A stretch of DNA of 42,492 bases, taken from NCBI GenBank assembly GCA_018658955.1, contig JABIPM010000012.1, positions 1 through 42,492 on the forward strand, given 5' to 3'. The notes beneath the pieces are model-generated. The model saw only the letters and a program-made list of their open reading frames with translations. It made no database searches and was not told the origin of the DNA. A program made the position numbers and the translations under genes. Numbering within the stretch: the first letter of the stretch is position 1; the number at the start of each line of letters is the position of its first letter. The DNA is from Candidatus Woesearchaeota archaeon (lineage in GTDB: Archaea > Nanobdellota > Nanobdellia > SCGC-AAA011-G17 > UBA489). This document shows positions 1 through 38,730 of this stretch, piece by piece.

Positions 1-420
1 AAAGTTCCAATTTTTTGTCCAGCAATAACTGACGGATCAATGGGGTTTCAACTTTACATGTTTCAGCAAGACAATCCAGAGTTCATAGTTGATGTTGTAA
101 AAGATTTCTCAAATATCTTATTTAGTGTATCTCAAGATGATAAAAAAGGAATTATTTCTTTAGGTGGAAGTATCTCAAAACACCATGCAATTTTAGCAGG
201 GGTTTTAAATGGTGGAATGGATTATGCAATTTATATGACGACAGCAAGACCAACTTCCGGAAGTATGAGTGGGGCAACAACCAACGAAGCAAAATCGTGG
301 GGTAAGGTAAAAGATGATTCTGACGTAGTTACAGTAGTTGGAGACGTTACAATTAACTTTCCTTTAATGATGACTGCAGCACTAGAAAAACTCTCTAGGG
401 AGGGATTAATCGATGAGTAG
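1..420 (+). CDS. dys: deoxyhypusine synthase, C-terminal part (5' end outside window)
   Basis: The frame is open from nt 1 (KVPIFCPAITDGS precedes the listed Met at 40). Motifs PAITDGSxG, LGGSISKHH and NEAKSWGK match the DHS family. The stop (418-420) overlaps the next start (413). Confidence 0.85.
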   Translation, partial: KVPIFCPAITDGSMGFQLYMFQQDNPEFIVDVVKDFSNILFSVSQDDKKGIISLGGSISKHHAILAGVLNGGMDYAIYMTTARPTSGSMSGATTNEAKSWGKVKDDSDVVTVVGDVTINFPLMMTAALEKLSREGLIDE

Positions 421-1441
421 GGCTAAATTTATCTTAAACAAGAGTAAAGTAATTGAACAGTTAAACAAAACATATGAATTAACAGATATAGTGTCTTATT
501 TTTTGAAAACAAACTATGAAGTTGGAAAAATATTGGAAAAAGAATCTAAGTGTCAATTTAGCGTACATTCTATGAAAGTTGCACACGAAATAGAGTCTCC
601 AGAAAGAATTTGGTTTTTTGCTCAAGCATGGAATAAAGAAGAATTAAAAAATTTACTAAAGAGAGAAATAACCTCATTTGTAGTAGATAATGAAAAAGAT
701 CTACAAGTTTTACTAGAAAACACAACTACCAAAGTAAATCTACTTCTAAGGATGAAATTACAAGAAAATACTGTTCATACAGGAAAACATTTCGTATTTG
801 GATTTTCTTCAAAAAGAGCAAATGAATTAATCGGCGAATTATCCACTCACAGAAAAATAAACAAGATAGGAATTCATTTTCACAGAAAGACGCAGAATGT
901 AAGTGAATGGGGAATAAAAGAAGAATTACAAGACTCATTAACACAAGAAACATTAGATCAAATAAGTTTCGTAAACATTGGGGGAGGACTTCCAAGCATT
1001 TACAAAAATTATAAATTAGAAGCATTAGATTCAATTTTTACAAAAATAAAAGAAGTAAAGGAATGGCTTAATCAAAACGAAGTAAAAATGATTATTGAAC
1101 CAGGAAGATTCATTGCTGCACCTTCAATAAAGTTAGAAACAAGTGTAAAAAATGTTTATAATGGAAATGTTATCGTTAATGCATCAGTATATAATTCTGC
1201 AATGGATACATTCATAGCAAATATCCGATTAAATGTAGCAGGAGAAACGACAGCAGAAGAAGGAAGACCATTCACAATTAAAGGAATAACTCCAGATTCC
1301 TTAGATATTTTTAGATATAGGGTATTTTTATCAAAAAAACCAAAGATTGGGGATCAGATAATCTTCCTAAATGCCGGAGCCTATAACTTTTCAACAGATT
1401 TTTGTAAATTGCCTAAAATACCTACAGAGGTAGTAGAATGA
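413..1441 (+). CDS. PLP-dependent fold-III decarboxylase (Orn/Arg/DAP decarboxylase family), short and atypical
   Basis: PLP-Lys context YFLKTNY, IGIHFHRKTQ, NIGGGLP, EPGRFIAAPS and GDQIIFLNAGAYN align with ODC/ADC motifs. The usual GPTCD cysteine reads GITPD here. ATGA overlap with the agmatinase start. Confidence 0.72.
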   Translation: MSRAKFILNKSKVIEQLNKTYELTDIVSYFLKTNYEVGKILEKESKCQFSVHSMKVAHEIESPERIWFFAQAWNKEELKNLLKREITSFVVDNEKDLQVLLENTTTKVNLLLRMKLQENTVHTGKHFVFGFSSKRANELIGELSTHRKINKIGIHFHRKTQNVSEWGIKEELQDSLTQETLDQISFVNIGGGLPSIYKNYKLEALDSIFTKIKEVKEWLNQNEVKMIIEPGRFIAAPSIKLETSVKNVYNGNVIVNASVYNSAMDTFIANIRLNVAGETTAEEGRPFTIKGITPDSLDIFRYRVFLSKKPKIGDQIIFLNAGAYNFSTDFCKLPKIPTEVVE

Positions 1442-2277
1442 ATTGGATGGATCTTCCAGAAGAATATACTAAAGAAAATTCTTATTTCAAAATTCTTCCA
1501 ATCTCATATGAACAAGCAACAACCTATGGGGATGGAGCTTCAAAAGGGCCAGAAGAAATAATTAAAGCATCTAAACACTTAGAATATTACGAAGATCAAT
1601 TCAATAATGAACCTTTCACAAAAGGAATACACATATTACCTGAATTAAAATTAAATTCAACACCAGAAGACATGGTTAAACAAGTATCAGAAACTGTTTC
1701 AAATCAAAAAGGATTTTTAGTTTCATTGGGTGGGGATCATGCAATAACCATTGGAACAGTTAAGGGTTTAGAAGAAGATTTTTCAGTAATAGTATTTGAT
1801 GCACATTCAGATTTTAGAAATGAATGGAACGGTTCAAAATTAAACCATGCATGCGTATCAAAACAAATTTCAAAAAACCATGATTTAGCATTAATTGGAA
1901 TTCGTTCTCAAGATATAGAAGAACATAATGAAATAACTAATAATTCCAACATCCACCAACTAAAATCATATGATTTTTCAGTTGAAAAATTAAAAGAACT
2001 GCTCCCTAAATTAAAAGAAAAAGTTTACATTTCAATAGATGTTGACGTATTTGATCCTCCATTTTTAAAAAATACTGGAACTCCTGAACCAGGAGGATTG
2101 CAATGGGACCAAATAATTAATTCATTAGAAGAAATATTCAAACAAAAAGAGGTAATTGGGGCAGATATAGTAGAATTTGCACCAAAAGAAAACTTCAGAA
2201 CAGAAGCATATTCTTTAGCAAGATTAGTTTACAAAATATTTTCACTCAAACTCAAAAATATCCTTAATAGGTCTTAA
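1438..2277 (+). CDS. speB: agmatinase / ureohydrolase family
   Basis: Arginase-fold Mn-binding motifs GGDHAITIG, DAHSDF, SIDVDVFDP, and the GADIVEFAP region. Confidence 0.85.
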   Translation: MNWMDLPEEYTKENSYFKILPISYEQATTYGDGASKGPEEIIKASKHLEYYEDQFNNEPFTKGIHILPELKLNSTPEDMVKQVSETVSNQKGFLVSLGGDHAITIGTVKGLEEDFSVIVFDAHSDFRNEWNGSKLNHACVSKQISKNHDLALIGIRSQDIEEHNEITNNSNIHQLKSYDFSVEKLKELLPKLKEKVYISIDVDVFDPPFLKNTGTPEPGGLQWDQIINSLEEIFKQKEVIGADIVEFAPKENFRTEAYSLARLVYKIFSLKLKNILNRS

Positions 2278-8628: not shown

Positions 8629-10638
8629 TTAATCAAACATACTAAACATATTGCCTGTAGGTTCATCATCATCTTTTTTCTTCTTTTTTTCAGATTCAGT
8701 TTCATTAGTCCTATCTAAGTTAGAAATCCTATTTTGGTATTGTGGACTTTCGCTATAAGACCTTACTCCGTCATCTCTGGTCCATTCTTTTTTAACACCT
8801 CTAAACACATTATTTACCACTAAACTTTCACTAGAAACCTTCTGTTTCTTACTGAATATCCTTGAAAACAAACCTGATTTCTTAACCGGATTTACTCTTG
8901 CTCTTTCTTTAAATCCCCTAACTCTTTCCATATAAGCTTTATATTTCTTAACATGGTCTTCTTCACTAATAACTCTACTCATAGAAGCACCACCATATTC
9001 TCCTTGTTTTCCCTTAGGAACAATGTTTCTAGAGTGCATAGTTTTCATTATTCTTTTTCTCAATCTTTTTTTACTGCCTTTCCAAATCATCCACAACATG
9101 ATAATCACCCATACAACTGCAACGTAAATTAACCAACTATAACTCATCCTTTTTACACCCATGATTTCAACAGCTTCAAATGAATTTTCATTAACAACAA
9201 CATCATAAGTTCCAGTAATCATTCCAACACCTAGATCAATTCTTTCTTCTTGACCAACACCAAGATTAAGTTTATCGGAAATACTAGAAGTTTTAGCCAA
9301 ACTTTCTAACTCAATTTGTAACGGCCCTTCATAAGGGATATTTCCCACATTTTTAACTACTAAAGTTTGTCCATCTAAACTATACTCTAATTTCAAAACT
9401 TGTCCAACAACAAATATTTTTTCACCTTCGACATTACCATAGTATCCTCTAATAAAATAATTTCCAGGTTCAACATCTGCATCTAAAGTAATTGTAAATT
9501 GTTCACCTGAATTTTGAACACTATCAAAGAAAATATCTTCATCTTCATTCTCCACCTTAATTGTAATTGAATCCTCAATAACTTCACCCGCTTGATCTTT
9601 CAAAAAAGCCTTAATTTCCATACTTTCACCAGGGTTAATGGCTTCTTTTGCTCCTGCAATCGTTATTTTAGATGGAATCGCATCAACGATTATTGAAAAG
9701 GTATATGTGCCAAAATTACCAAATTCATCCTCTATTCTAACATTAATGTCCTGTTTTCCGCTAGTAATAGTATTTAATAAATAAAAGTCTAAATCAAAAT
9801 TACCATTTCTCAAGTCTTCTTCATACTTTTCTTCACCTATGCTAACATAAACAGTTCCTTTTTTCAACTTTCCACCAAGTACACTAGCAGTACCTTCCAT
9901 CTTTACTTTTTCTTTAGGTAAATAGTGCACTTTCGCAGTATGGGCGTTAACTTCAATTTTATTAATCAAAACAAAAGAACCAGCATTAATCAAAACAGAA
10001 TTTCCAAAACCATTTCTAATTTCAACAGTTACTAAATATTCACCACCTGGAACATCCCTGGTATTAATTTCAAAAACCACTTTACCTTCTTCAACCTCTA
10101 CAGAATCTGAGAAATAAATTCCACCCTCTTTTTTCAAAGTGATTATTGCAAATCCTTCAACAGGAGTTCCATCTTGTTTGAAACTTTTTCCGCTTATTTT
10201 AATTTCTTCACCAGCCTGAATATTTTCTTTATTTATTCCCACAGTTCCAGTCAGAGCAGTTGTAACCACAAAGTTACTTGAACTTTTAATTTCTAATACA
10301 CTTTCAAAATTATCTAAACTAACATCAACATTACAATTTCCTTCATTTAAAGAAACAATTGCAAACTCTTCACTGAAATCTTTTTTAACACCTGATTTCA
10401 AACTAACACTTCTAACCATTAATACATCTTTTTCAGAACCACATACCAATTCAAATTTTAATAATCCTAATGCATCATCGGTTCTAAGTACATAACCACT
10501 AATAGTAATGTCATCACCAATATTAACGGCAGTTTGTTCAGGACCATTTACAATAATCTCCGCATTAACAAAGCCAATACTAACTAATAAAAATAATCCT
10601 ACAAAAAGCCCAAAAACTCCCCTCTTTATACTTCCCAT
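8629..10638 (-). CDS. surface protein: signal peptide, repeated Ig/CARDB-like beta-rich modules, one C-proximal TM helix and a basic cytoplasmic tail
   Basis: N-terminal FGLFVGLFLLVSIGFVNA signal-like segment, a long beta-rich ectodomain, the TM WLIYVAVVWVIIMLWMIW, and a K/R-rich tail ending in KKKKKDDDE. Confidence 0.7.
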   Translation of the reverse strand: MGSIKRGVFGLFVGLFLLVSIGFVNAEIIVNGPEQTAVNIGDDITISGYVLRTDDALGLLKFELVCGSEKDVLMVRSVSLKSGVKKDFSEEFAIVSLNEGNCNVDVSLDNFESVLEIKSSSNFVVTTALTGTVGINKENIQAGEEIKISGKSFKQDGTPVEGFAIITLKKEGGIYFSDSVEVEEGKVVFEINTRDVPGGEYLVTVEIRNGFGNSVLINAGSFVLINKIEVNAHTAKVHYLPKEKVKMEGTASVLGGKLKKGTVYVSIGEEKYEEDLRNGNFDLDFYLLNTITSGKQDINVRIEDEFGNFGTYTFSIIVDAIPSKITIAGAKEAINPGESMEIKAFLKDQAGEVIEDSITIKVENEDEDIFFDSVQNSGEQFTITLDADVEPGNYFIRGYYGNVEGEKIFVVGQVLKLEYSLDGQTLVVKNVGNIPYEGPLQIELESLAKTSSISDKLNLGVGQEERIDLGVGMITGTYDVVVNENSFEAVEIMGVKRMSYSWLIYVAVVWVIIMLWMIWKGSKKRLRKRIMKTMHSRNIVPKGKQGEYGGASMSRVISEEDHVKKYKAYMERVRGFKERARVNPVKKSGLFSRIFSKKQKVSSESLVVNNVFRGVKKEWTRDDGVRSYSESPQYQNRISNLDRTNETESEKKKKKDDDEPTGNMFSMFD

Positions 10639-26506: not shown

Positions 26507-27754
26507 TTAGTTTTTAGAAATGCGGATATTACTTGTTTCATCAGTATTAAAATTATATAAAAAACTTAAATCATAATGCGGATATTCGCGTCCCCAAAAT
26601 CCTTGTATTACCCCACTAAGTTCAACGTCAAACTCAATATGAGAATCAGAGCTAGTAGGATTGATGTGTAACTTTTTAAATCTATTATAATAAAAATCAG
26701 GAAGGGAATTAAGTTTAATTATTTTTTCAGTTTTTTGCGGATCCTCATCAAATACATTATTATTAATAATTAACCTAAATTCTAAATCAGTTTCATACTC
26801 ATTTCTTCCAAAAGGCCGGTTTTTAAATCTAGCATCTGCAAATTCCCCGAATGCATAAAAAAGCATAAGTTCATCTTCATTAACAGGAGAATCTTTGAAA
26901 AGTAAGTGAGATATAGAGGACCAAGCCCCCCCTAAGGTCATCCCCCGTTTATCTTCAAAAGAAGGATCAAAATCACAAATTTTTTTTAAAAGCGCACCAC
27001 TTTCATTTAATCTCCAAAGTTCAGAAGTATGGGGATCATGCTCTGACAAAATTCCAAATTTTTCTTCTAAATTAGACTTAATAATCTCCGGACGGGTATA
27101 AGTTTTAGAATTTCCATCAAAATCAGAGACACAGATATTCCAATATAATGTATTAACTCCTTTTTTTTCTACTTCATAATAAAAATGTTTTCCATCTGCC
27201 AAAAATGAAGGTTTAACTTCATTTAATTCAGGAGTATAAGTTAATTTTCTAACTTTTTCCCATTCATAATTTTCATTTTCTATTGCAGAATAAATATCTT
27301 TTTGGCCATTGAAATCTAAACAAAACAATAACTTATTTCCAGCTCTTGATACATCTGATACACGCGAATCAAACCTTAAATTATTAGCATCTACGGCCAT
27401 TTCTTTTTCAACAATAATTGGTTGATTATTCCCAGAATTTCCTCCACCATATACATTAACATTTGGTGCACCCATTTTAGCACGATTATTTTCTGAAATA
27501 GAATTTGATAAGGACATAACTCCGCTCAATCCAGCGGCTTGTTCAGCAGTCTTAGCTAACCCTCCTGCACCAGCCATAGAAGCTACAGCGTGCACATAAT
27601 CGGAAGTTTGTGCCCCTTGACAAGAATATAAAGGAAATAATAAAGAACTTCCAATTAAAACATTTTTACAAGTATTTTTAATTTTTTGTTCCAAACCCAT
27701 GTCTAAAATAGAGGTTAAAGGATATATAAGCGTTCCTACTTTATAAGCAATCAA
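26507..27754 (-). CDS. hypothetical secreted/lipoprotein-like protein
   Basis: N-terminal hydrophobic segment ending LLFPLYSC (lipobox-like), Gly/Ala/Asn-rich linker, then a beta-rich domain. 4-nt overlap with dph5. Confidence 0.5.
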   Translation of the reverse strand: MIAYKVGTLIYPLTSILDMGLEQKIKNTCKNVLIGSSLLFPLYSCQGAQTSDYVHAVASMAGAGGLAKTAEQAAGLSGVMSLSNSISENNRAKMGAPNVNVYGGGNSGNNQPIIVEKEMAVDANNLRFDSRVSDVSRAGNKLLFCLDFNGQKDIYSAIENENYEWEKVRKLTYTPELNEVKPSFLADGKHFYYEVEKKGVNTLYWNICVSDFDGNSKTYTRPEIIKSNLEEKFGILSEHDPHTSELWRLNESGALLKKICDFDPSFEDKRGMTLGGAWSSISHLLFKDSPVNEDELMLFYAFGEFADARFKNRPFGRNEYETDLEFRLIINNNVFDEDPQKTEKIIKLNSLPDFYYNRFKKLHINPTSSDSHIEFDVELSGVIQGFWGREYPHYDLSFLYNFNTDETSNIRISKN

Positions 27755-28485
27755 ACCTTAAACCGTTCTACGCATTCTTCTTCCATGAAGTGCATATCCC
27801 CCGGGACAATTATACATTGAGGTTTTTTTTCAACAAAAATAGTTCCGACACCACCATATTTAATTTCTGGTTTAGCTCCGCCTAATCCTCCACAAACAAC
27901 CACCATTTCACTAGTACTTAATCCATGTTTAATTAAATAATCTAAACCCTTTCTTGCAGTCATTAAATTAAATTCTTCATTTTCATTTTTTACATCTAAC
28001 AAAATTAAAGTATGTAATCCCATTTTTTGATTTTCCACCATCATTTCATAAGGGCTAGAAATTCCTTCATTTTCTTTGGGAATAGTTATAACTCTTCCAT
28101 ATTTATACAAACTCATTCCAACAATACCAACTGCACCTAAAATTCCTGCATTATCAATTACTGTAGATTCTACATCAAGATCATCTGCTCTTCTAAGAAT
28201 ATCCAAATGTGTAGTTGCACCCAATGGACTTCCAACAATCAATAACGCAACATTACCCTCTCTCGCAGGCATTATCATCTCATCTTCACAATTTTTTTCG
28301 ACCATGTCTCTGTCTGCAAAGATAATTTCCTTACCATAAAATTCCTGCATTTTATCAATATCAAAATCAACTTGTTTACTCGTATAACATTCTAAGAAGA
28401 CTTTATCGCAACTTTTTACTGCTTCTAAACCTTTCACAGTAATATCTTTCTCATCACCCATCCCAATACCTATTAAGTAAAACAT
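27751..28485 (-). CDS. dph5: diphthine synthase
   Basis: Tetrapyrrole-methylase fold with the Dph5 N-terminus MFYLIGIGMGDEKDITVKGLEAVKSCDKVFLECYTS and GSPLGATTH. Confidence 0.9.
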   Translation of the reverse strand: MFYLIGIGMGDEKDITVKGLEAVKSCDKVFLECYTSKQVDFDIDKMQEFYGKEIIFADRDMVEKNCEDEMIMPAREGNVALLIVGSPLGATTHLDILRRADDLDVESTVIDNAGILGAVGIVGMSLYKYGRVITIPKENEGISSPYEMMVENQKMGLHTLILLDVKNENEEFNLMTARKGLDYLIKHGLSTSEMVVVCGGLGGAKPEIKYGGVGTIFVEKKPQCIIVPGDMHFMEEECVERFKV

Positions 28486-29212: not shown

Positions 29213-30676
29213 TTAATGTGTTTTAACCACTTTTCCAACCACGCTTCTCAGCATATGGTCAACTATCTCAAGATCATATAATTTGCCGATTTCAATCCTG
29301 TCTTTAACGCCAACAATCAAGGGATAACTCCCCATTTGTCTTCCAAATGTATGATTTCCATCGTGAACTTCCATTTTAACATTTTTCAAAATAGTTCCGC
29401 TAGGCACAAGATTTTTTAACATCTCAAAATCAACTTCTTTCCTAATCTTATTTCTCCATTTCCAATAATATTTCTTATTCTTCTTCAAGAATTTAGTTCC
29501 AACATCCCACATAGCAGTTCCAGGTAATGGTGTAACTTGTCTAATATTAATTCTTCTCAACAACAATCCTTCATCCAATATTTTTTTCAAATATTCATAA
29601 TTTAATTCACCAGTTTTTTTACTTTCACCTTTTAAACCAAATACTAAATTCAAACCGGGCAATAAGTAATGCATTCCATTTGGTCCTCGTTTAGCTCCAA
29701 ACTTATTAATAATCTTAACTGCATTCAATGCAACATCTGGAGAGGTATTCAAAGTATTTTGTTTTACAACTTCCATATCAAAACTTTCAACACCAAATGC
29801 AGCAATATTTCCTTCAGTACAATGTTTCACAATACATTTAGTTCTTTCCTCATTAACTAAAGAAGGAATCATATTATCTATATGTAAACAATCTAAGTTC
29901 AATTTACTTTCTCTTCCAATTGGTTTCAATAATTTATCTAACTCTTTAACATCCATTCCCTTATAACTTAAAATACAAGTTTGTTTACCTAATCTAAAAT
30001 TTCTTTCACCCATATCATAAAATGTTTTAATTTCTTTATGAATATCTTTTTGATCTCTCCATTCAACTTTTGATTTTAACGGTTCAGTACAAAAACTACA
30101 TTTACCCATTATACATCCCCTACCAGTTTCAATTTCAATCATTTTCCCCCAAGGAATCTGTTTAGCAATAGAAGCCCCCTTAACTGCATATTCACGCATC
30201 TCAGCATAATCTCCATAAACTTCTTTCATTTCTTCAACAAATAAACCAGAAGGAATCTTTTCAGCCATCTTTCCACCTTCTAATTGAGTTCCAGTGCTAA
30301 CAACAGGACCATAAAGAATTTTATCTGCCTTAATATTTTTAGTTAAAATTTCTATTTCTTTTACAGTTCCAGGTAAAGCACTCAAATATTTCCCGGGAGT
30401 TTGCATTCCAACTACACAAAATAATCTTTTTGTTTTTTCTAAAATTTCTCCAATATTATTTCTAGTTAAATTATAAATTTTAATATTGGTTTTTTGTCCA
30501 TCTTTTTTCTTATTTTTGTATTTAACATAAAATCTTAGATCATCAATAGTAACATAATTTACTTTTCCTTCCAAATAGCCTGCGAGATATCTCGGATGCA
30601 CTCCCAAATATGGAGGGACACCTAAACCAGAAGGTTCATCAGTATAACAATCCAAGATAGTATCTTCATATATCAT
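29213..30676 (-). CDS. radical SAM protein with C-terminal TRAM-like domain
   Basis: Cluster motif GRGCIMGKCSFC (C-x4-C-x2-C spacing). C-terminal GTILKNVKMEV...GRQMGSYPLIVGV...IGKLYDLEIVDHMLRSVVG resembles TRAM. Confidence 0.78.
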   Translation of the reverse strand: MIYEDTILDCYTDEPSGLGVPPYLGVHPRYLAGYLEGKVNYVTIDDLRFYVKYKNKKKDGQKTNIKIYNLTRNNIGEILEKTKRLFCVVGMQTPGKYLSALPGTVKEIEILTKNIKADKILYGPVVSTGTQLEGGKMAEKIPSGLFVEEMKEVYGDYAEMREYAVKGASIAKQIPWGKMIEIETGRGCIMGKCSFCTEPLKSKVEWRDQKDIHKEIKTFYDMGERNFRLGKQTCILSYKGMDVKELDKLLKPIGRESKLNLDCLHIDNMIPSLVNEERTKCIVKHCTEGNIAAFGVESFDMEVVKQNTLNTSPDVALNAVKIINKFGAKRGPNGMHYLLPGLNLVFGLKGESKKTGELNYEYLKKILDEGLLLRRINIRQVTPLPGTAMWDVGTKFLKKNKKYYWKWRNKIRKEVDFEMLKNLVPSGTILKNVKMEVHDGNHTFGRQMGSYPLIVGVKDRIEIGKLYDLEIVDHMLRSVVGKVVKTH

Positions 30677-31669: not shown

Positions 31670-33724
31670 ATGTGTGGAATAACTGGAGCAATAAACCTAG
31701 AAAATCACAAAGAAATAGCTAGCAACGCATTAAATAAAATTCTTTATAGAGGAATAGATAATAAAAAAATACATTCAGAAAATAATTTTACTTTTGCACA
31801 TTGTTTACATTCTATTGTGGGAAACAAACCACAACCACTAATAAAAGGAAATTTCATTTTTGGTTCTAATTGTGAAATCTACAATTGGAAAGAACTAAAA
31901 GAAAAATACAACTTAAATTCAGAAAATGATGCAGAATTATTATTTGATTTACTAATTAAAAAACTAAACAAGCCAGAAGAACTAAACTCAATTCTAAAAG
32001 AAGTAAGTGGAGTATTTGCTTTCTTCTTACATAATAAAAAAGAAAATTACACAATACTGGCAAGAGACCTATTAGGAGAAAAACCATTATGGTTTTACAA
32101 TAAAGATTCCTTAATATTTGCATCAGAAAGAAAGGCAATAGCTTCAAAGGAAATAGAACCAGAAGAACTAAATCCTAGAAAAATATTATTATTTAATCAC
32201 AAAACAAACAAATTAACATTCTTACATCAAGATTTCTTCAAAATAGAACCAGAAAAGTTAAACAAAGAAAACCTAAAACGATTAATAAAATCTTCAATTT
32301 TACAAAGAGTTCCAAACAAACACCTAGGAATACTGTTCTCAGGAGGTTTAGACTCAACACTATTAGCACATATCTTAACAAATAACAATATTCCATTCAC
32401 TGCATATATGACCGTCTCAGAAACAAAAACAAAAGAAATAGAAAACGCAGAAAAGATTGCAAAAGAACTAAACTTCAAATTAAAGTTAGTAAAAACAAAC
32501 AAAGAACAGATTATCAAAGAATTACCAAAAATAGTTAATTTAATTGAAACTGCAGACCCAGTTAAAGTGGAAGTAGCAACCACACTATATTTTTCTCTAC
32601 AGGCAGCCCAAAAAGACAACATTAAAGTAATTTTCTCAGGGGTTGGTGCAGACGATATTTTTGGGGGTTACAAAAGAATGCATCAATCTCAAAACATAAC
32701 CTTAGATTCATTATCTAACCTAAGAAGGATTTATGAAAGAGATCTTTACAGAGATGATGTTCTTTCAATGGCACACAACATAGAACTCAGATTACCGTAC
32801 TTAGACAAAAAATTAGTTCAAGCTTGTCTTAATACTCCGGATGAACATAAAGTCTCTGAAACTCCAAAGAAATTAATGAGAGAACTATCTCGAGAATTAG
32901 GATTATCAAAAGAACTATCTCAACTAAAAAGAAATGCTGCACAATACAGTAGTGGAATAGGAAAAGTAATTTCAAAAATTGTAAAAGAAAAGGGCCAATA
33001 CAAGGCAGAATACTTTTCAAACATTCTAAAAAGGAAAAATATCAAACTAGGTGCATTATTTTCTTCTGGTAAGGACAGCGTATACGCATTACATATCCAA
33101 CATAGACTAAATTATGAAGTTTCCTGTTTGATCACTATAGACAGTCAAAACAAAGACTCATTCATGTTTCACACGCCAACAATAGAATTGGCAGAAACAC
33201 AGGCAGAATGTTTAGATATTCCAATCATTCTACAAAAAACAAAGGGGGAAGAAGAAAAAGAACTAACAGATTTAGAAGTAGCACTAACAAGAGCAAAGGA
33301 AAAATATCAAATACAGGGAATAATTACTGGTGCAATTTTTTCAAACTATCAAAGAACAAGGATTGAAGAAATCTGTGACAAACTAAATCTAAAATGTTAC
33401 TCCCCATTATGGCACATGGATCAAGAAACTGAAATGAAAAACTTAATTCAAAAGGATTACAAATTTATCATGACTAAGGTTGCTGCAGAAGGATTAGATA
33501 AATCATTCCTAAATAAAATTGTAACACAAACAGAATTAGACAAGTTAGTTAAATTAAATAAAAAATTACATATTAATGTTGCAGGAGAAGGAGGGGAATT
33601 TGAAACTCTAGTTTTGGATGCACCATTGTTCAAATCAAAATTAAAGATAGAAGAATCAGAAATTATTGAAGAAAAAGATGGTTCTGCAACATTAATCATA
33701 AAGAAAATTTCAAAACAAGAATAA
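31670..33724 (+). CDS. fusion protein: class II glutamine amidotransferase + asparagine-synthetase-like PP-loop domain + Dph6-type (MJ0570/DUF71) diphthine-ammonia ligase domain
   Basis: N-terminal MCGI (Ntn Cys), SNCEIYNW, DAELL. AsnB synthetase motifs GILFSGGLDS and FSGVGADDIFGGY. From about aa 455 (nt about 33031), GALFSSGKDSVYAL, GAIFSNYQRTRIEEIC, SPLWHMDQ and AGEGGEFETLVLDAPLF match the Dph6 N-terminal domain. Confidence 0.8.
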   Translation: MCGITGAINLENHKEIASNALNKILYRGIDNKKIHSENNFTFAHCLHSIVGNKPQPLIKGNFIFGSNCEIYNWKELKEKYNLNSENDAELLFDLLIKKLNKPEELNSILKEVSGVFAFFLHNKKENYTILARDLLGEKPLWFYNKDSLIFASERKAIASKEIEPEELNPRKILLFNHKTNKLTFLHQDFFKIEPEKLNKENLKRLIKSSILQRVPNKHLGILFSGGLDSTLLAHILTNNNIPFTAYMTVSETKTKEIENAEKIAKELNFKLKLVKTNKEQIIKELPKIVNLIETADPVKVEVATTLYFSLQAAQKDNIKVIFSGVGADDIFGGYKRMHQSQNITLDSLSNLRRIYERDLYRDDVLSMAHNIELRLPYLDKKLVQACLNTPDEHKVSETPKKLMRELSRELGLSKELSQLKRNAAQYSSGIGKVISKIVKEKGQYKAEYFSNILKRKNIKLGALFSSGKDSVYALHIQHRLNYEVSCLITIDSQNKDSFMFHTPTIELAETQAECLDIPIILQKTKGEEEKELTDLEVALTRAKEKYQIQGIITGAIFSNYQRTRIEEICDKLNLKCYSPLWHMDQETEMKNLIQKDYKFIMTKVAAEGLDKSFLNKIVTQTELDKLVKLNKKLHINVAGEGGEFETLVLDAPLFKSKLKIEESEIIEEKDGSATLIIKKISKQE

Positions 33725-33891
33725 TGACATTAATTATTGACATACGCTGTCCAAAATGTGGGAAATACCAGAAAATGGAGATCAGAAATCCCAAAATGAC
33801 AGTGTTTAACAAACCAGATTTAACAGGAAAAAGAAAAGTTTGTATTTGGTGTGAAAAATCATTCAAAGTTGGGAAAGATACGGTTCAATAG
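33724..33891 (+). CDS. 55-aa zinc-ribbon protein (not in ORF track)
   Basis: Hand translation gives MTLIIDIRCPKCGKYQKMEIRNPKMTVFNKPDLTGKRKVCIWCEKSFKVGKDTVQ, with a CxxC...CxxC pattern. Its ATG overlaps the upstream stop (TAATG). Confidence 0.55.
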   Translation: MTLIIDIRCPKCGKYQKMEIRNPKMTVFNKPDLTGKRKVCIWCEKSFKVGKDTVQ

Positions 33892-33960: not shown

Positions 33961-34965
33961 ATGATTAAATGGAGCGCTACAAAACTAAAAGATGCAACAG
34001 AATGCATGTTTAAAATTTATTTAAAATATGAAGAAAAAATCAAATCTAAAGAAAACTACGCCCTCGCTTCAGGAAAACACGTTCACTCTTTCTGTGAAAA
34101 ATTTAATGATCACAGACTAAAGAGAAATAATTATGAATCTGCAGAAAGTTTTGCAAAACAAGGAGCATATATGTGGAATAATTTAGTTCTTCCACCGAAA
34201 AATTTAGAAGAAAAATTTGAAGGAGAAAAATGGGCAACTTACAACATAATGAAAAACTGCCTTACAAATTTCTACGAATTCTATGGCGATAGGGAAAAAC
34301 CACTAGATGTTGAAAGAAGATTTGTATTAGGTATTGAAGATTACTTAATTGAAGGGTACATAGACATCATAGACAAACCATTCAAACATATCGATCTTAA
34401 AACTGGTTATCATTTACCCACAGAACAAGAATTAAAGAATGATTATCAATTTACAATTTATGCAGCGGCAATACCTTTCTTAGCACAAAGAGATCAAAGA
34501 TTACGGGAAATGTTTCAATTAACTAAAGCTCAAGAAAAAACACTGGACAATAATCCTTTGGAATTAATGGAAGAAGTTACTGGTGAATTCTATCACATGC
34601 GTTCAGGAACATTTGTTCCAATCAAAAAAACAAAAAACGATTTACTCGAATTATTAAACACTATTGAATCAGTATCTCACAGAGCAGAACAAGGAGATTT
34701 TACTCATCATAGAGGCAGGCACTGTGATTGGTGCTTATATGGAGATAAGTGTAACGAATATAGAAATAATGACCAGATAATTCTTCCAGAACCAATCAGA
34801 GAAAAGAAAAGTAAAGGATTATTATTTGACATTCATAACAATCCACTAAAACTACATTCAGAATTACCTCAAATCAAATCAATTAGAACTCCTGCAAAAG
34901 GTGGTAAAAAGAAAAAACCTAAAAAATTAACCAAAAAAGATACACCATTATTCAATGACCTTTAA
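33961..34965 (+). CDS. Cas4/RecB-like PD-(D/E)xK nuclease with 4-Cys cluster and Lys-rich C-terminal tail
   Basis: N-terminal WSATKLKDATECMFKIYL (first Cys), GYIDIID, IDLKTG (D/ExK), QFTIYAAA (QxxxY), C-terminal HCDWCLYGDKC, and the tail KGGKKKKPKKLTKK. Confidence 0.72.
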   Translation: MIKWSATKLKDATECMFKIYLKYEEKIKSKENYALASGKHVHSFCEKFNDHRLKRNNYESAESFAKQGAYMWNNLVLPPKNLEEKFEGEKWATYNIMKNCLTNFYEFYGDREKPLDVERRFVLGIEDYLIEGYIDIIDKPFKHIDLKTGYHLPTEQELKNDYQFTIYAAAIPFLAQRDQRLREMFQLTKAQEKTLDNNPLELMEEVTGEFYHMRSGTFVPIKKTKNDLLELLNTIESVSHRAEQGDFTHHRGRHCDWCLYGDKCNEYRNNDQIILPEPIREKKSKGLLFDIHNNPLKLHSELPQIKSIRTPAKGGKKKKPKKLTKKDTPLFNDL

Positions 34966-36722: not shown

Positions 36723-37580
36723 TTATAATTTAATCCTTTTTTTATGAATGGATAAATATCTTCTAAAATAATAATTAACAAAATGTTCTTCATCTTGGGT
36801 AAATGCCTTGTAATAAGATGCTCTTTTTTTATATTCAATTATCAGCATAGGATAACCTGCATGCCACAATAGATGATTCATTAATAATCTTCCAATTCTA
36901 CCATTTCCATCCCCAAATGGATGAATGATTTCAAATCTATAATGTGCTCTCGCAGATAATTCAACAGGATTCATTTGTTTATTTTTATCAATAAATTTTA
37001 CAAATTCATTCATACGCCCCATTACCTCTTGCCAATCGGGAGCAACGTAAGGGCCAATACGGACCAGATAGTCTCTAAATTTCCCGGCAACATCTTCTTT
37101 AGTAAATTTAAAAACATCTTCATGCCATCTCAATAATAATTTCTTTGTTAATTTTTCTTTTTTCTTTAATAATTTTAAAAAAACTTTATTATGCTCCTCT
37201 GTTTCTTTAATTTCATTTAATTCTTTATTTGGAGCAATTCTATTATGAACTATTTCTCTTGTTTCTTCGAGAGTGATTGTTGATCCTTCAATAGCATTGG
37301 TGTTATATGTAAATGCTATCGCAATTTCTTCAAGTTCCTTTTCCTTCATACTTTTTGGAAGTTTTTCCCACTCTTGTTGAAATTGAGATTTAATAGATTC
37401 TAATTTTTGATATAACTGTCGATTACATTCTTTTTTGAATTTAGATTTTATAACTTCAATATCATCAGGAATAATTTTTCCTAGATATTTCTCTCTTGTA
37501 ATTGATTTACCCCCTTCCCTATATGAATGCTGTAAATAAAAATATTCTTTATTTCCCTTTTTTCTTGTTATAATTCTCAC
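36723..37580 (-). CDS. Fic-domain protein (putative AMPylase) with N-terminal inhibitory motif
   Basis: Canonical Fic motif HPFGDGNGRIGR. The upstream TNAIEG matches the (S/T)xxxE(G/N) autoinhibitory helix. Confidence 0.9.
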   Translation of the reverse strand: MRIITRKKGNKEYFYLQHSYREGGKSITREKYLGKIIPDDIEVIKSKFKKECNRQLYQKLESIKSQFQQEWEKLPKSMKEKELEEIAIAFTYNTNAIEGSTITLEETREIVHNRIAPNKELNEIKETEEHNKVFLKLLKKKEKLTKKLLLRWHEDVFKFTKEDVAGKFRDYLVRIGPYVAPDWQEVMGRMNEFVKFIDKNKQMNPVELSARAHYRFEIIHPFGDGNGRIGRLLMNHLLWHAGYPMLIIEYKKRASYYKAFTQDEEHFVNYYFRRYLSIHKKRIKL

Positions 37581-37643: not shown

Positions 37644-37726
37644 CGCCACGACCCGGATTTGAACCGGGATGTCCAGAAGGACCTGGATTAGCAGTCCAGT
37701 GCAATACCAAATTATGCGATCGTGGC
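37644..37726 (-). tRNA. tRNA-Ser (anticodon GCU), 83 nt, no encoded CCA
   Basis: Hand-folded. Acceptor GCCACGA/UCGUGGC, anticodon arm CUGGA-CUGCUAA-UCCAG, long variable arm GUCC-UUCU-GGAC, T arm CCCGG-UUCAAAU-CCGGG, discriminator G. Confidence 0.9.
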
Positions 37727-37770
37727 TTAATCATTTTCTTATAATCCTAATTTATAAGCGTTATCAAAAA

Positions 37771-37852
37771 CGCCGCGAGTAGGATTTGAACCTACATATC
37801 CGAAGAAATCGGTTTTCGAGACCGACGCAATACCAAATTATGCGATCGCGGC
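37771..37852 (-). tRNA. tRNA-Ser (anticodon CGA), 82 nt, no encoded CCA
   Basis: Hand-folded. Acceptor GCCGCGA/UCGCGGC, anticodon arm UCGGU-CUCGAAA-ACCGA, long variable arm, T arm GUAGG-UUCAAAU-CCUAC. The 5' 26 nt are nearly identical to the neighbouring tRNA-Ser. Confidence 0.9.
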
Positions 37853-37932
37853 ACAATGTTTCATTCAATTGATAATTAATAAACCTAACCAAATATTTAA
37901 ATATCATTTATAACCTCTATTTAAACAATAAA

Positions 37933-38730
37933 ATGCCCCATTCTGAACTACAAAAAGCCTATGAAAGGATAAATAACTTAGAAAAAACTATTAACAACCC
38001 CTCACAGACCCAAGAAATTAGAGATTTGAGACAAACATTAAAAGAAATAGAACTAAAATTAAACACAGACGAAAAAACAGGAATTCTTTCAAAAACAGGT
38101 TTAGAAAAATTATTAACAACAACGACAAATTCTCAATGGCCTAGCGGAATAATTTACATAGATATGATGGGATTAAAAGAAATTAATGATAAATACGGCC
38201 ATAATGTTGGAGATATTCAAATTAATCAAGTGGCTTATGGGTTAAAACATGTCTTACGTTCGAGTAAAGAAGCACATGGAAATGAAAGAAGAATGGCAGA
38301 AAAAGAAAATATTGGAAGTCCAGATTTAATTTTTGATTTAAGATCTCAAAATTCAGATGTGGGAAGAATGTATTCTGGAGGAGATGAATTCATAGGTGTC
38401 CTACAAAACATAGAAGGATATAATGGTTTAAGGACAGCAATGGAAAGATTATCGGAACATTTTAATTCAGAAGATTTACCTGCAATATCAATTGGTGGAA
38501 CAGTTCACGCTCCAAATAGTTCAATTGAAGATTCGATAAGGTTAGCAGAAGAAGCAATGTATGAATCTAAAAACGCACTAAAAACAAGAAGAGATAATTT
38601 TAGCTTAGAATCATATGACACAGGATATGCAATAAATTATCCAAATATAGGCATAAACATTTACTTACCTAAAACAGATTTCTTAACACCAATTAAGGCA
38701 GAAATAGCAAAACTAAAAAAAGTTAATTAA
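37933..38730 (+). CDS. GGDEF-domain protein (putative diguanylate cyclase) with N-terminal coiled-coil
   Basis: It aligns with PleD-type GGDEF: DEKTGILSKTGL, IIYIDMMGLKEINDKYGHNVGD, SGGDEFIGVL (GGDEF codons 38377-38391), ISIGGTV, LAEEAMYESKN. There is an insertion of about 30 aa before the GGDEF hairpin. Confidence 0.85.
   Translation: MPHSELQKAYERINNLEKTINNPSQTQEIRDLRQTLKEIELKLNTDEKTGILSKTGLEKLLTTTTNSQWPSGIIYIDMMGLKEINDKYGHNVGDIQINQVAYGLKHVLRSSKEAHGNERRMAEKENIGSPDLIFDLRSQNSDVGRMYSGGDEFIGVLQNIEGYNGLRTAMERLSEHFNSEDLPAISIGGTVHAPNSSIEDSIRLAEEAMYESKNALKTRRDNFSLESYDTGYAINYPNIGINIYLPKTDFLTPIKAEIAKLKKVN

Follow-up and report, generated by a model that had tools for sequence, protein, structure and literature searches.

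The window analysed, a 42,492-nucleotide stretch of DNA from a Candidatus Woesearchaeota archaeon, encodes a diphthine-ammonia ligase of the AsnB-DUF71 type in its Woesearchaeota form, in which a glutamine amidotransferase-like domain, an AsnB-like PP-loop domain designated Syn, and a Dph6 domain are joined in one polypeptide (Table 1). We see an even chance that the AsnB-like module of this three-domain diphthine-ammonia ligase is a dedicated partner of Dph6 that feeds ammonia to the amidation of diphthine.

The fusion is a correct rediscovery of a known enzyme type and not a new system. The first-pass annotation did not recall the architecture as having been described, but AsnB-DUF71 fusions were reported in 2012 in Methanohalophilus, Methanosalsum and Nanosalinarum (de Crécy-Lagard et al., Biol Direct 7:32, PMC3541065). 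The same paper proposed glutamine-derived ammonia as the supply for Dph6, and the puzzle of the two PP-loop domains was raised in it by the reviewer Aravind. NCBI and JGI already name the fusion proteins diphthine-ammonia ligase. The annotation had also held that its proposal would fall if the architecture proved to be both catalogued and functionally explained; it is catalogued and a hypothesis on its role has been published, which goes part of the way to that refutation. No later paper on a fusion of Dph6 with asparagine synthase was found beyond that of 2012, nor were biochemical data on any member of the fusion family found in the literature, and the accessible part of the survey of dph genes in DPANN by Narrowe et al. 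2018 does not mention the fusion. The present analysis adds the non-canonical residues of the AsnB-like module, the existence of relatives that lack the glutaminase (GATase) domain, and the merely local synteny of a zinc-ribbon gene and dph5.

Diphtheria toxin targets diphthamide, a modification of EF-2 that is conserved in archaea and eukaryotes. To our knowledge, the nitrogen source of the last step of diphthamide formation has never been settled. The fusion family bears on whether the amidation of diphthine can depend on glutamine and on what a second PP-loop domain adds. Moreover, the family is large, its predicted structure is confident, and the residue differences and GATase-less variants suggest concrete mutants and constructs.

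Table 1. Position and strand of the features discussed (nucleotide positions in the window)
Feature	Position	Strand	Remarks
Three-domain fusion gene	31670-33724	+	684 aa plus stop; ATG start; protein begins MCGI
Class II (Ntn) glutamine amidotransferase-like domain	31670-32239	+	aa 1-190; GATase_7 and GATase_6 matches
AsnB-like PP-loop ATP-pyrophosphatase domain (Syn)	32267-32989	+	aa about 200-440; Asn_synthase match
Syn/Dph6 junction	32957-33043	+	aa 430-458; modelled as two helices
Dph6 (DUF71/MJ0570-type) diphthine-ammonia ligase domain	33044-33721	+	aa 459-684; PF01902, TIGR03679
55-aa CxxC...CxxC zinc-ribbon gene	33724-33891	+	start overlaps the stop of the fusion gene (TAATG)
dph5 (diphthine synthase)	27751-28485	-	3 kb upstream of the fusion gene; TIGR00522

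The ORF, Pfam and NCBIfam matches bore out the initial description of one 684-aa ORF in three parts, with GATase_7 at aa 53-158 (2e-19), Asn_synthase at aa 215-344 (2.5e-38) and Diphthami_syn_2 at aa 459-679 (1.8e-61). The PP-loop motifs were SGGLDS in Syn (nt 32339-32356) and SSGKDS in the Dph6 domain (nt 33062-33079), and the translation also contained GADDIFGGY, YQRTRIE, PLW and GEGGEFETLVLDAPLF. The AF2 model had a pLDDT of 93.7 and a pTM of 0.91, values that indicate a fixed arrangement of the domains in a predicted rigid three-domain body.

A 100% identical protein (P0001) is present in ENA, more than 120 full-length homologues were found, and the closest genome, that of Ca. Woesearchaeota BH21, encodes a protein that is 91% identical. 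Relatives are encoded in at least 544 species genomes (GTDB); locus counts given below out of 80 refer to the best 80 GTDB species loci among these, and residue columns to 119 family members, plus 81 GTDB proteins. DPANN archaea and a few Methanosarcinaceae carry the three-domain form. Many TPA records are labelled "Uncultured Methanosarcinales archaeon", a taxonomy that is probably unreliable (GC 28-48%), and the methanogen members were counted from Methanosarcinaceae and Methanolobus records only.

The Dph6 domain and the AsnB-like module

The C-terminal domain is, to judge by its family membership, a canonical Dph6. It scored 268.4 bits against TIGR03679 (Dph6_archaeal, cutoff 197.3; profile positions 2-217 of 218), so that the MJ0570/Dph6 signatures noticed in the second PP-loop domain were upheld at the level of an equivalog family, and it matched PF01902 end to end (1.8e-61, positions 2-216 of 219). 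The PDB entries 3rjz and 2d13 were matched at E about 1e-50, and Foldseek aligned the modelled domain to PF0828 (3rk1) and PH1257 (2d13) with TM 0.94-0.95 and rmsd 1.2-1.3 Å. The residues of PF0828 that are predicted to face EF-2 are Ser44, Tyr45, Glu78, Tyr103, Gln104, Ala149, Glu183, Glu186 and Glu188 (PMC3541065). SxGKDS, Ser44, Glu78, Tyr103, Gln104, Arg105, Arg107 and EGGExE were invariant in the 119 members, as were the equivalents of Glu183, Glu186 and Glu188, and the Ala149 equivalent was nearly so. The window protein has SSGKDS and GEGGEFE, with Phe as the Tyr45 equivalent. The variants EGGEAE or EGGETE occurred in 7 of the 80 loci, all of them intact fusions.

By orthology, the Dph6 domain would use ATP to adenylate the carboxylate of diphthine on aEF-2 and yield the amide, diphthamide. 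ATP-dependent amidation of diphthine on EF-2 has been shown for yeast Dph6 only, and in 2021 the activity of archaeal Dph6 was still described as unconfirmed by experiment. M. mahii and M. zhilinae both carry the fusion, and for each complete genome a single DUF71 homologue is listed, so the fusion is the only Dph6 there. The presence in the window of dph5, a gene of the same pathway, is in keeping with the Dph6 identity. Within the 42-kb window there was no second copy of dph6 or asnB, and tblastn found no Dph2.

The N-terminal module adopts the AsnB fold in the model (Foldseek to 1CT9: TM 0.80, target-normalised; rmsd 3.2 Å), but it scored below the cutoffs of both TIGR01536 (227.7 bits; cutoff 267.1) and NF006949 (207.3 bits; cutoff 499), which places it in the AsnB-like superfamily (PF00733) and outside the AsnB equivalog. 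In AsnB the glutamine site is formed by a network of Cys1, Arg49, Asn74, Gly75, Glu76 and Asp98, in which Arg49 binds the α-carboxylate of glutamine (the role of Arg48/49 is described in PMC6748925). Cys1 was present in 118 of the 119 members, and the equivalents of Arg30, Asn74, Glu76 and Asp98 were invariant or nearly invariant. Three substitutions were found in the domain (E. coli AsnB numbering), Arg49 to Leu, Leu50 to His and Gly75 to Cys, the first in 119/119 members and the last in 115/119. Because the α-carboxylate-binding Arg49 is Leu in every member and Gly75 is Cys, the use of glutamine is not assured.

The Syn domain has kept its ATP site, with SGGxDS, Ser346, Gly347, an Asp351-like residue, Lys429, a Lys449-like residue and many invariant charged residues. 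The column of Lys449 (human Lys466, which binds phosphate) held Lys in 94 of the 119 members and Arg in 24, with Arg in the window protein. Thr322 is replaced by Lys. Glu348 was never Glu in the fusion family; its column held Leu (102), Val (14), Ile (2) and Thr (1) among the 119 members, with Val in the window protein, and Ser in a few GTDB members. The corresponding residue in human ASNS, Glu364, is required, since E364A and E364Q are inactive. Judged by these residues, the N-terminal module is probably not a canonical asparagine synthetase, and the asparagine-synthetase domain of the first-pass annotation was reduced to an AsnB-like fold without Glu348 and Arg49 that falls below the TIGR01536 cutoff.

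Proposed supply of ammonia and possible role of the Syn domain

If the AsnB-like module serves Dph6, the Cys1 Ntn domain would most likely hydrolyse an amide donor that is probably glutamine and binds in a non-canonical way, and the ammonia released would be used for the amidation of diphthine inside one rigid three-domain body. Channelling of ammonia from glutamine to Dph6 is plausible. Syn may contribute ATP-dependent coupling or the handling of ammonia, for example; its intact ATP site and its partnership with Dph6 where there is no glutaminase suggest that it is more than a passive tunnel.

The other architectures in which Syn occurs bear on this proposal. Syn is fused to Dph6 without a GATase in three loci (L151, L152, L164), and genes for Syn only abut a Dph6 gene or lie 1 kb from it in three others (L134, L149, L142). 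GAT-Syn genes adjoin a gene for Dph6 (L106) or for a Dph2 half (L086, L088). Syn alone is a highly conserved protein of roughly 302 aa in many Woesearchaeota, stand-alone GAT-Syn also occurs with no dph gene nearby, and in most loci of the Syn-only and GAT-Syn types dph genes are absent within 5 kb. The pairing of Syn with Dph6 where there is no GATase implies that the conserved link joins the two PP-loop domains, with the glutaminase optional, and the GATase-less fusions in particular show that the association is not chiefly due to the glutaminase. The gene neighbourhoods of Syn-only and GAT-Syn genes contained no conserved neighbour that would hint at an acceptor substrate. A PPDK-like "recurrent neighbour" of the Syn-only genes was rejected, as it proved to be the Syn gene itself read in an antisense frame.

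A different explanation, possible but leaning to the unlikely, is that the protein carries out two separate amidations. GAT-Syn would then be a self-contained amidoligase, using glutamine or ammonia, with its own carboxylate acceptor, not aspartate, which might lie on aEF-2 or on another component of translation, while Dph6 would use free ammonia. The fusion would thus reflect a shared macromolecular substrate or pathway and not shared ammonia. The ammonia tunnel of AsnB-type enzymes ends at the cognate PP-loop site, here that of Syn, and not at a third domain. Syn retains the residues of the ATP site and many invariant charged residues and is as constrained as Dph6, and the Syn-only and GAT-Syn proteins mirror the ammonia-dependent and glutamine-dependent NAD synthetases. 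Indeed, the complete ATP site, the solo Syn proteins and the GAT-Syn genes remote from dph genes fit an enzyme with a substrate of its own at least as well as an accessory of Dph6. Two amidations were also raised in 2012 by Aravind as a reviewer (PMC3541065). Against them stand the lack of any known second amidated residue on aEF-2, the failure of the gene neighbourhoods to yield a candidate acceptor, and the repeated independent linkage to Dph6 or Dph2 which, with the rigid model, points to the diphthamide reaction.

A further proposal, offered tentatively and in our judgement unlikely, is that Syn and not the glutaminase is the real partner of Dph6, either as a second ATP-using component of diphthamide formation or as the amidoligase for a second modification of aEF-2 or a related translation factor. 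If true, this would account for the occurrence of Syn by itself, together with a GATase, in GATase-less fusions to Dph6, and beside dph6 or dph2. The GATase would be dispensable, adding glutamine dependence where it occurs, and on the first reading Syn would be a previously unrecognised component of the pathway in DPANN archaea and in a few methanogens.

It is improbable that the protein is a bifunctional enzyme whose N-terminal domains make Asn as a glutamine-dependent asparagine synthetase, mechanistically unconnected to the Dph6 to which they are fused. The module finds its best matches in the PDB and among HMMs in AsnB and ASNS, it has Cys1, the PP-loop and a Lys449-like residue, and JGI labels some members asparagine synthase. 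These points are outweighed by the replacement of Glu348 by Leu, Val or Ile (Ser in a few), of Thr322 by Lys and of Arg49 by Leu, by the scores under the TIGR01536 and NF006949 cutoffs, and by the poor fit of such an enzyme to the GATase-less Syn-Dph6 fusions and the adjacency of Syn and Dph6 genes.

Gene neighbourhood and integrity of the fusion

The 55-aa CxxC...CxxC ORF and the dph5 gene pointed out by the first-pass annotation were both located as described, the former in the sequence itself, where its start codon ATG overlaps the TAA stop of the fusion gene by a single base, and the latter by TIGR00522 (200.4 bits; cutoff 114.3). The suggested linkage of the two to the fusion did not hold up. 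Orthologues of the zinc-ribbon protein (65-89% aa identity) were found downstream of the fusion in 6 of the 80 loci only (L001, L003-L006, L009), starting no more than 30 nt from the fusion stop in five of them; in L009 the start lies about 200 nt past the stop. In 4 of the 80 loci (L004, L005, L006, L009) the fusion gene had a dph5 gene no more than 4 kb away. All of these are the closest relatives, so the check for co-conservation was negative; the adjacency of the zinc-ribbon gene and dph5 is clade-level synteny. The proximity of dph5 was accordingly rejected as evidence for an operon, since it is nearby only in four syntenic close relatives.

The small zinc-ribbon ORF is a genuine gene confined to one clade, and an identical NCBI protein is named "hypothetical protein". 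The overlap of its start with the fusion stop, and the retention of all four Cys in the ORF downstream of the fusion in six related loci, would suit a translationally coupled subunit of the enzyme, such as a metal-binding partner resembling Dph3/Kti11. This is nonetheless highly improbable. The ORF is missing from the other 74 of the 80 loci, including three (L002, L007, L008) at 58-67% identity, and it forms merely four clusters in a collection of 5.8 billion proteins. It matched no Pfam or NCBIfam family above cutoff and gave no zf-CSL match at E up to 0.1. Its AF2 model (pLDDT 84) had no significant Foldseek match in the PDB, where the best E was 0.88, to eS27-type ribbons, and Kti11 was absent among the best 50 matches. 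Archaea, moreover, are without Dph3 according to the accessible part of Narrowe et al. 2018. A Dph3-like partner was discarded on the lack of a family, the four clusters and the lack of a structural match.

The check for a frameshift at about 33000-33040 gave none, and the comparison of domain architectures across archaeal genomes showed the fusion to be genuine. The reading frame runs unbroken across the Syn/Dph6 junction, which AF2 modelled with helices at residues 430-440 and 445-453; the 10-residue blocks over aa 431-490 had mean pLDDT values of 93-96. No column of the junction was at least 95% conserved and its mean pairwise identity was 46%. The corresponding values for the GAT, Syn and Dph6 domains were 52%, 57% and 59%, so that the three domains are about equally constrained. 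Nothing was found in favour of an artefact, the caveat raised by the first-pass annotation. The probability that an assembly or sequencing artefact joined two adjacent genes is negligible, given the same three domains in one intact, continuous ORF in 80/80 of the best GTDB species loci, which are independent assemblies, and in about 30 metagenome contigs, the identical protein in ENA, and the confidently structured junction.

Comparison with known systems

The AsnB(COG0367)-DUF71 proteins of 2012 (M. mahii, M. zhilinae and "Ca. Nanosalinarum") have the same order of domains, GAT-II, Asn_synthase PP-loop and DUF71/Dph6, and the role proposed for them is alike, while the host here is a member of the Woesearchaeota. 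They were compared through the related proteins of a Methanosarcinaceae genome (L067) and two Methanolobus genomes (L070, L072). These relatives were 43% identical over residues 1 to about 677 and shared Leu49, His50, Cys75 and Lys322, with Ser at the position of Glu348. The 2012 paper spoke of "a few Archaea", whereas the family is now represented in at least 544 species genomes, and it did not report the non-canonical active site residues or the GATase-less relatives.

A stand-alone Dph6 is the archaeal norm, as the first-pass annotation had it and the literature agrees. The C-terminal 226 aa here were 35-40% identical to the stand-alone archaeal enzymes PF0828, PH1257 and MJ0570 in structural alignments. 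The PP-loop, EGGExE and the residues predicted to contact EF-2 are common to both, except that Tyr45 is Phe here. The fusion has about 458 extra N-terminal residues, which form two domains packed on Dph6 in the model.

The annotation was also right that yeast Dph6 carries a different partner, which the literature gives as RidA-type domains. In yeast and plant Dph6 (DUF71 and two RidA/YjgF domains) a Dph6 core is likewise fused to a possible ammonia generator; the yeast enzyme needs these domains in vivo, and they have also been proposed as an ammonia source. The partner in these proteins is C-terminal and has a RidA deaminase fold, and, unlike the fusion here, they lack a second PP-loop domain.

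E. coli AsnB and human ASNS (EC 6.3.5.4) have the two-domain fold in common with the fusion (TM 0.78-0.81, target-normalised), together with Cys1, Asn74, Glu76, Asp98, SGGxDS, Ser346, Gly347, Lys429 and a Lys449-type residue. The fusion differs from them in Leu49, His50, Cys75, Leu, Val or Ile at 348, and Lys322, and it is without the last roughly 90 residues of AsnB.

A PP-loop amidoligase core that occurs with and without a fused glutaminase across lineages is likewise seen in GAT-QueC of Crenarchaeota. The ligase core of NAD synthetase is also found with or without a fused glutaminase according to lineage (PMC3376133), as is the case for GAT-Syn and Syn. NAD synthetase and GAT-QueC, however, are enzymes with a single PP-loop domain whose acceptor is known, whereas the fusion described here has two PP-loop domains.

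Domain composition and conserved residues

The first-pass annotation had placed a class II glutaminase (GAT), an AsnB-like PP-loop domain (Syn) and a Dph6 domain in one ORF, and this was confirmed by the ORF itself, Pfam and NCBIfam (see table). Pfam assigned residues 53-158 to GATase_7, residues 215-344 and a second stretch to Asn_synthase, and residues 459-679 to Diphthami_syn_2 (1.8e-61). The C-terminal part matched the archaeal Dph6 equivalog TIGR03679 with 268.4 bits (cutoff 197.3). The PP-loops SGGLDS (nt 32339-32356) and SSGKDS (nt 33062-33079) were located, as were the remaining motifs that had been quoted.

The AlphaFold2 model of the protein (118 sequences) had a pLDDT of 93.7 and a pTM of 0.91. 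The Syn/Dph6 junction consisted of two helices, with 10-residue blocks between residues 431 and 490 averaging a pLDDT of 93-96, and the Dph6 domain superposed on PF0828 and PH1257 with TM scores of 0.94-0.95. A structure search with the model found no solved structure spanning all three domains.

Residues were compared by aligning 119 members of the family to the segments of E. coli AsnB and PF0828 from the PDB search, and the analysis was repeated with 81 proteins from GTDB loci. In the Dph6 domain (PF0828 numbering) SxGKDS, Ser44, Glu78, Tyr103, Gln104, Arg105, Arg107 and E183-G-G-E186-x-E188 were invariant among the 119 members, and the domain is fully canonical. The glutaminase domain (E. 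coli AsnB numbering, as for Syn) had Cys1 in 118 of the 119 members and retained Arg30, Asp33, Asn74, Glu76 and Asp98. Arg49 was replaced by Leu in every member, Leu50 by His and Gly75 by Cys; the human ASNS residue equivalent to Arg49, Arg48, is positioned for glutamine contact and is part of a conserved substrate network (PMC6748925). The amide donor site of the N-terminal module is non-canonical. The Syn domain retained the ATP-site residues SGGxDS, Ser346, Gly347, an acidic equivalent of Asp351, Lys429 and a Lys449-type Lys or Arg, and had Lys in place of Thr322. Mean pairwise identities of 52%, 57% and 59% by domain indicated that constraint on the three domains is about equal, so that Syn cannot be a remnant in decay. 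The polypeptide is rigid and under selection, and combines a bona fide Dph6, an Ntn domain bearing Cys1 and an AsnB-like domain bearing an ATP site.

Genes of the window and architectures of the family in other loci
Feature	Position or loci	Strand	Remarks
GAT-Syn-Dph6 fusion gene	31670-33724	+	single ORF, 684 aa, N-terminus MCGI
Zinc-ribbon ORF	33724-33891	+	55 aa, CxxC...CxxC; one-base overlap with fusion stop (TAATG)
dph5 (diphthine synthase)	27751-28485	-	TIGR00522, 200 bits vs 114
Radical-SAM protein gene	29213-30676	-	487 aa
PD-(D/E)XK nuclease gene (PF12705)	33961-34965	+	immediately 3' of zinc-ribbon ORF; C-terminal Cys cluster CDWCLYGDKC
Decarboxylase-like and arginase-family gene pair	413-2277	+	overlapping
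ORF without Pfam match	8629-10638	-	669 aa
Fic/DOC-domain gene	36723-37580	-	
tRNA-Ser (GCT)	37644-37726	-	
tRNA-Ser (CGA)	37770-37853	-	
GGDEF-domain gene	37933-38730	+	
GAT-Syn-Dph6, other loci	~30 loci		form of the window gene (metagenome scan)
GAT-Syn	L081, L082, L083, L085, L087		without Dph6 domain
Syn-Dph6	L151:1304-2809, L152:3450-5009, L164:3797-5299		~500 aa; Asn_synthase + Diphthami_syn_2, without GATase domain
Syn-only	~30 loci, e.g. L135:4875-5789		~300 aa (about 302); proteins P0288-P0407

Architectures of the Syn family and possible function

When the N-terminal 455 residues of the fusion protein were used in an exhaustive HMMER search, many proteins of ~440-520 aa were returned that had the signature HxLH, NCE, Lys322, SG-L-GEE and YRDR and lacked a Dph6 domain. 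Several of the GAT-Syn genes lay deep within long contigs and are therefore true stand-alone genes. A metagenome scan was seeded with GAT-Syn proteins; its results, sorted by HMMs of the family and checked against Pfam, comprised four architectures (see table; L-numbers are loci of relatives, P-numbers homologous proteins). No GATase ORF was found in the flanks of the three Syn-Dph6 genes. The Syn-only group comprised more than 120 clusters at 78-91% identity with the signature residues of the window protein; those with a named source came from Woesearchaeota and Nanoarchaeota and were annotated 'asparagine synthase C-terminal domain-containing protein'.

A separate Dph6 gene abutted the Syn-only gene in two loci (L134, L149) and lay 1 kb away in a third (L142), and in L106 Dph6 was 1.5 kb from a GAT-Syn gene. 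A split Dph2 half of 231 aa (PF01866; L086:5582-6274) followed a stand-alone GAT-Syn gene at a distance of 22 nt, and Dph2 halves were also near family members in L088, L151, L079 and L094; Narrowe et al. 2018 reported split Dph1/2 in DPANN. Most Syn-only and GAT-Syn loci lacked any dph gene within 5 kb; association with dph genes is therefore frequent and not obligatory. The link that recurs is the one joining Syn to Dph6, both of them PP-loop domains, whereas the glutaminase is optional. The absence of Glu348 and of Arg49, the Syn-Dph6 proteins lacking a GATase and the Syn-only relatives suggest that the key partner of Dph6 is Syn rather than the glutaminase.

In the most likely mechanism the Dph6 domain would adenylate and amidate diphthine on aEF-2, the Ntn domain would split glutamine or a related amide to free ammonia, and the ammonia would be consumed inside the complex, while Syn would serve in ATP-dependent coupling or ammonia handling instead of asparagine synthesis. 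The main alternative, which is less likely, is that GAT-Syn is an independent amidoligase with its own acceptor, fused to Dph6 through a common target or pathway. A plain asparagine synthetase is unlikely. GAT and Syn of the model superposed on E. coli AsnB (TM 0.80), but the N-terminal part fell below the asparagine-synthase equivalog cutoffs (TIGR01536, 227.7 vs 267.1; NF006949, 207 vs 499), and Glu348 of Syn was replaced by Leu, Val or Ile, rarely by another residue, with Glu in no member examined; the corresponding human ASNS mutants, E364A and E364Q, are inactive. The module is AsnB-like by fold and is not an asparagine synthetase.

Occurrence of the fusion and its gene neighborhood

More than 120 full-length homologues (~670-720 aa, 44-70% identity) had the same Pfam set as the fusion protein; their sources were mostly MAGs of Woesearchaeota and Nanoarchaeota, and NCBI or JGI gives many of them the name 'diphthine--ammonia ligase'. 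When one genome per GTDB species was scanned, at least 544 loci encoded a relative, the closest being that of Ca. Woesearchaeota BH21 (91% identity, with synteny). The best 80 of these loci aligned over residues 1 to ~680. A break suspected at the Syn/Dph6 junction was not borne out, the ORF being continuous in all 80, and an assembly artefact is excluded by these uninterrupted loci, by an identical protein already present in ENA and by the confidently modelled junction.

Genuine Methanosarcinaceae and Methanolobus records were among the fusion loci (L067, L070, L072). Many MAGs with the fusion, among them the TPA records L016, L017 and L019, are labelled 'uncultured Methanosarcinales archaeon', yet have a GC content of 28-48% and Woesearchaeota-like fusion proteins; the label looks like placeholder taxonomy.

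The 55-residue zinc-ribbon ORF is a real gene. Six loci (L001, L003-L006, L009) had an orthologue, at 65-89% identity and with all four Cys, downstream of the fusion gene; it started no more than 30 nt from the fusion stop in five of them and ~200 nt downstream in L009. The identical protein has an NCBI annotation and occurs on 194 contigs. The ORF was missing from the other 74 of the best 80 fusion loci. Its protein formed only four clusters in the whole protein collection, had no family above cutoff in Pfam or NCBIfam and, in a Foldseek search with its model, no significant structural neighbor. Similarly, dph5 was within 4 kb of the fusion gene in only 4 of the best 80 loci, in the same clade as the zinc-ribbon loci. 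Both genes are indeed close to the fusion gene in the window, as first noted, but the few close-clade loci amount to local synteny, not functional co-conservation.

The remaining window is ordinary archaeal chromosome of low GC (~30%) that also carries genes for PheRS α and β, ThrRS, MetRS, IMPDH and Dus as well as two tRNA-Ser genes; neither a second Dph6 nor a second AsnB is present within its 42 kb. The radical-SAM protein, whose gene shows synteny with the fusion gene in six close relatives, weakly resembles B12-binding radical SAM methyltransferases (scores for TIGR04014 and TIGR04013 far under cutoffs), and the nuclease gene was syntenic in L001, L004 and L005. The Fic/DOC-domain and GGDEF-domain genes flank the tandem tRNA-Ser pair; a GGDEF domain is probably unusual in an archaeon. 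The PLP-dependent Orn/Arg decarboxylase-like gene and the overlapping agmatinase-like gene suggest that this reduced genome has an agmatine or polyamine route. At the ORF without a Pfam match the GC skew was strongly negative (-0.35 to -0.41).

Comparison with the published hypothesis

The first-pass interpretation was partly supported: the domain identities and the reality of the fusion stood, and the claim of an undescribed architecture was wrong. A COG0367/AsnB domain N-terminal to DUF71 was published by de Crécy-Lagard et al. 2012 (Biol Direct 7:32, PMC3541065) in Methanohalophilus mahii, Methanosalsum zhilinae and 'Ca. Nanosalinarum', its AsnB part comprising two subdomains, GAT-II and an Asn_Synthase_B_C PP-loop. 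Table S1 of that paper lists one DUF71 homologue each for M. mahii and M. zhilinae; these complete genomes therefore have no Dph6 other than the fusion. It was proposed there that NH3 from glutamine hydrolysis passes to the DUF71 and Asn-synthase domains, and the reviewer Aravind asked which PP-loop domain consumes the ammonia and what reaction the Asn-synthetase-like domain catalyzes. The central idea of the first-pass annotation thus coincides with a published hypothesis. No later literature extending the AsnB-DUF71 hypothesis was found, and experimental confirmation of archaeal Dph6 function was still awaited as of 2021.

The architecture and the hypothesis are already known from the literature and from database annotation. 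The 2012 paper does not mention Syn-Dph6 without a GATase, and this form, the missing Glu348 and Arg49 and the Syn-only relatives are new constraints added here.
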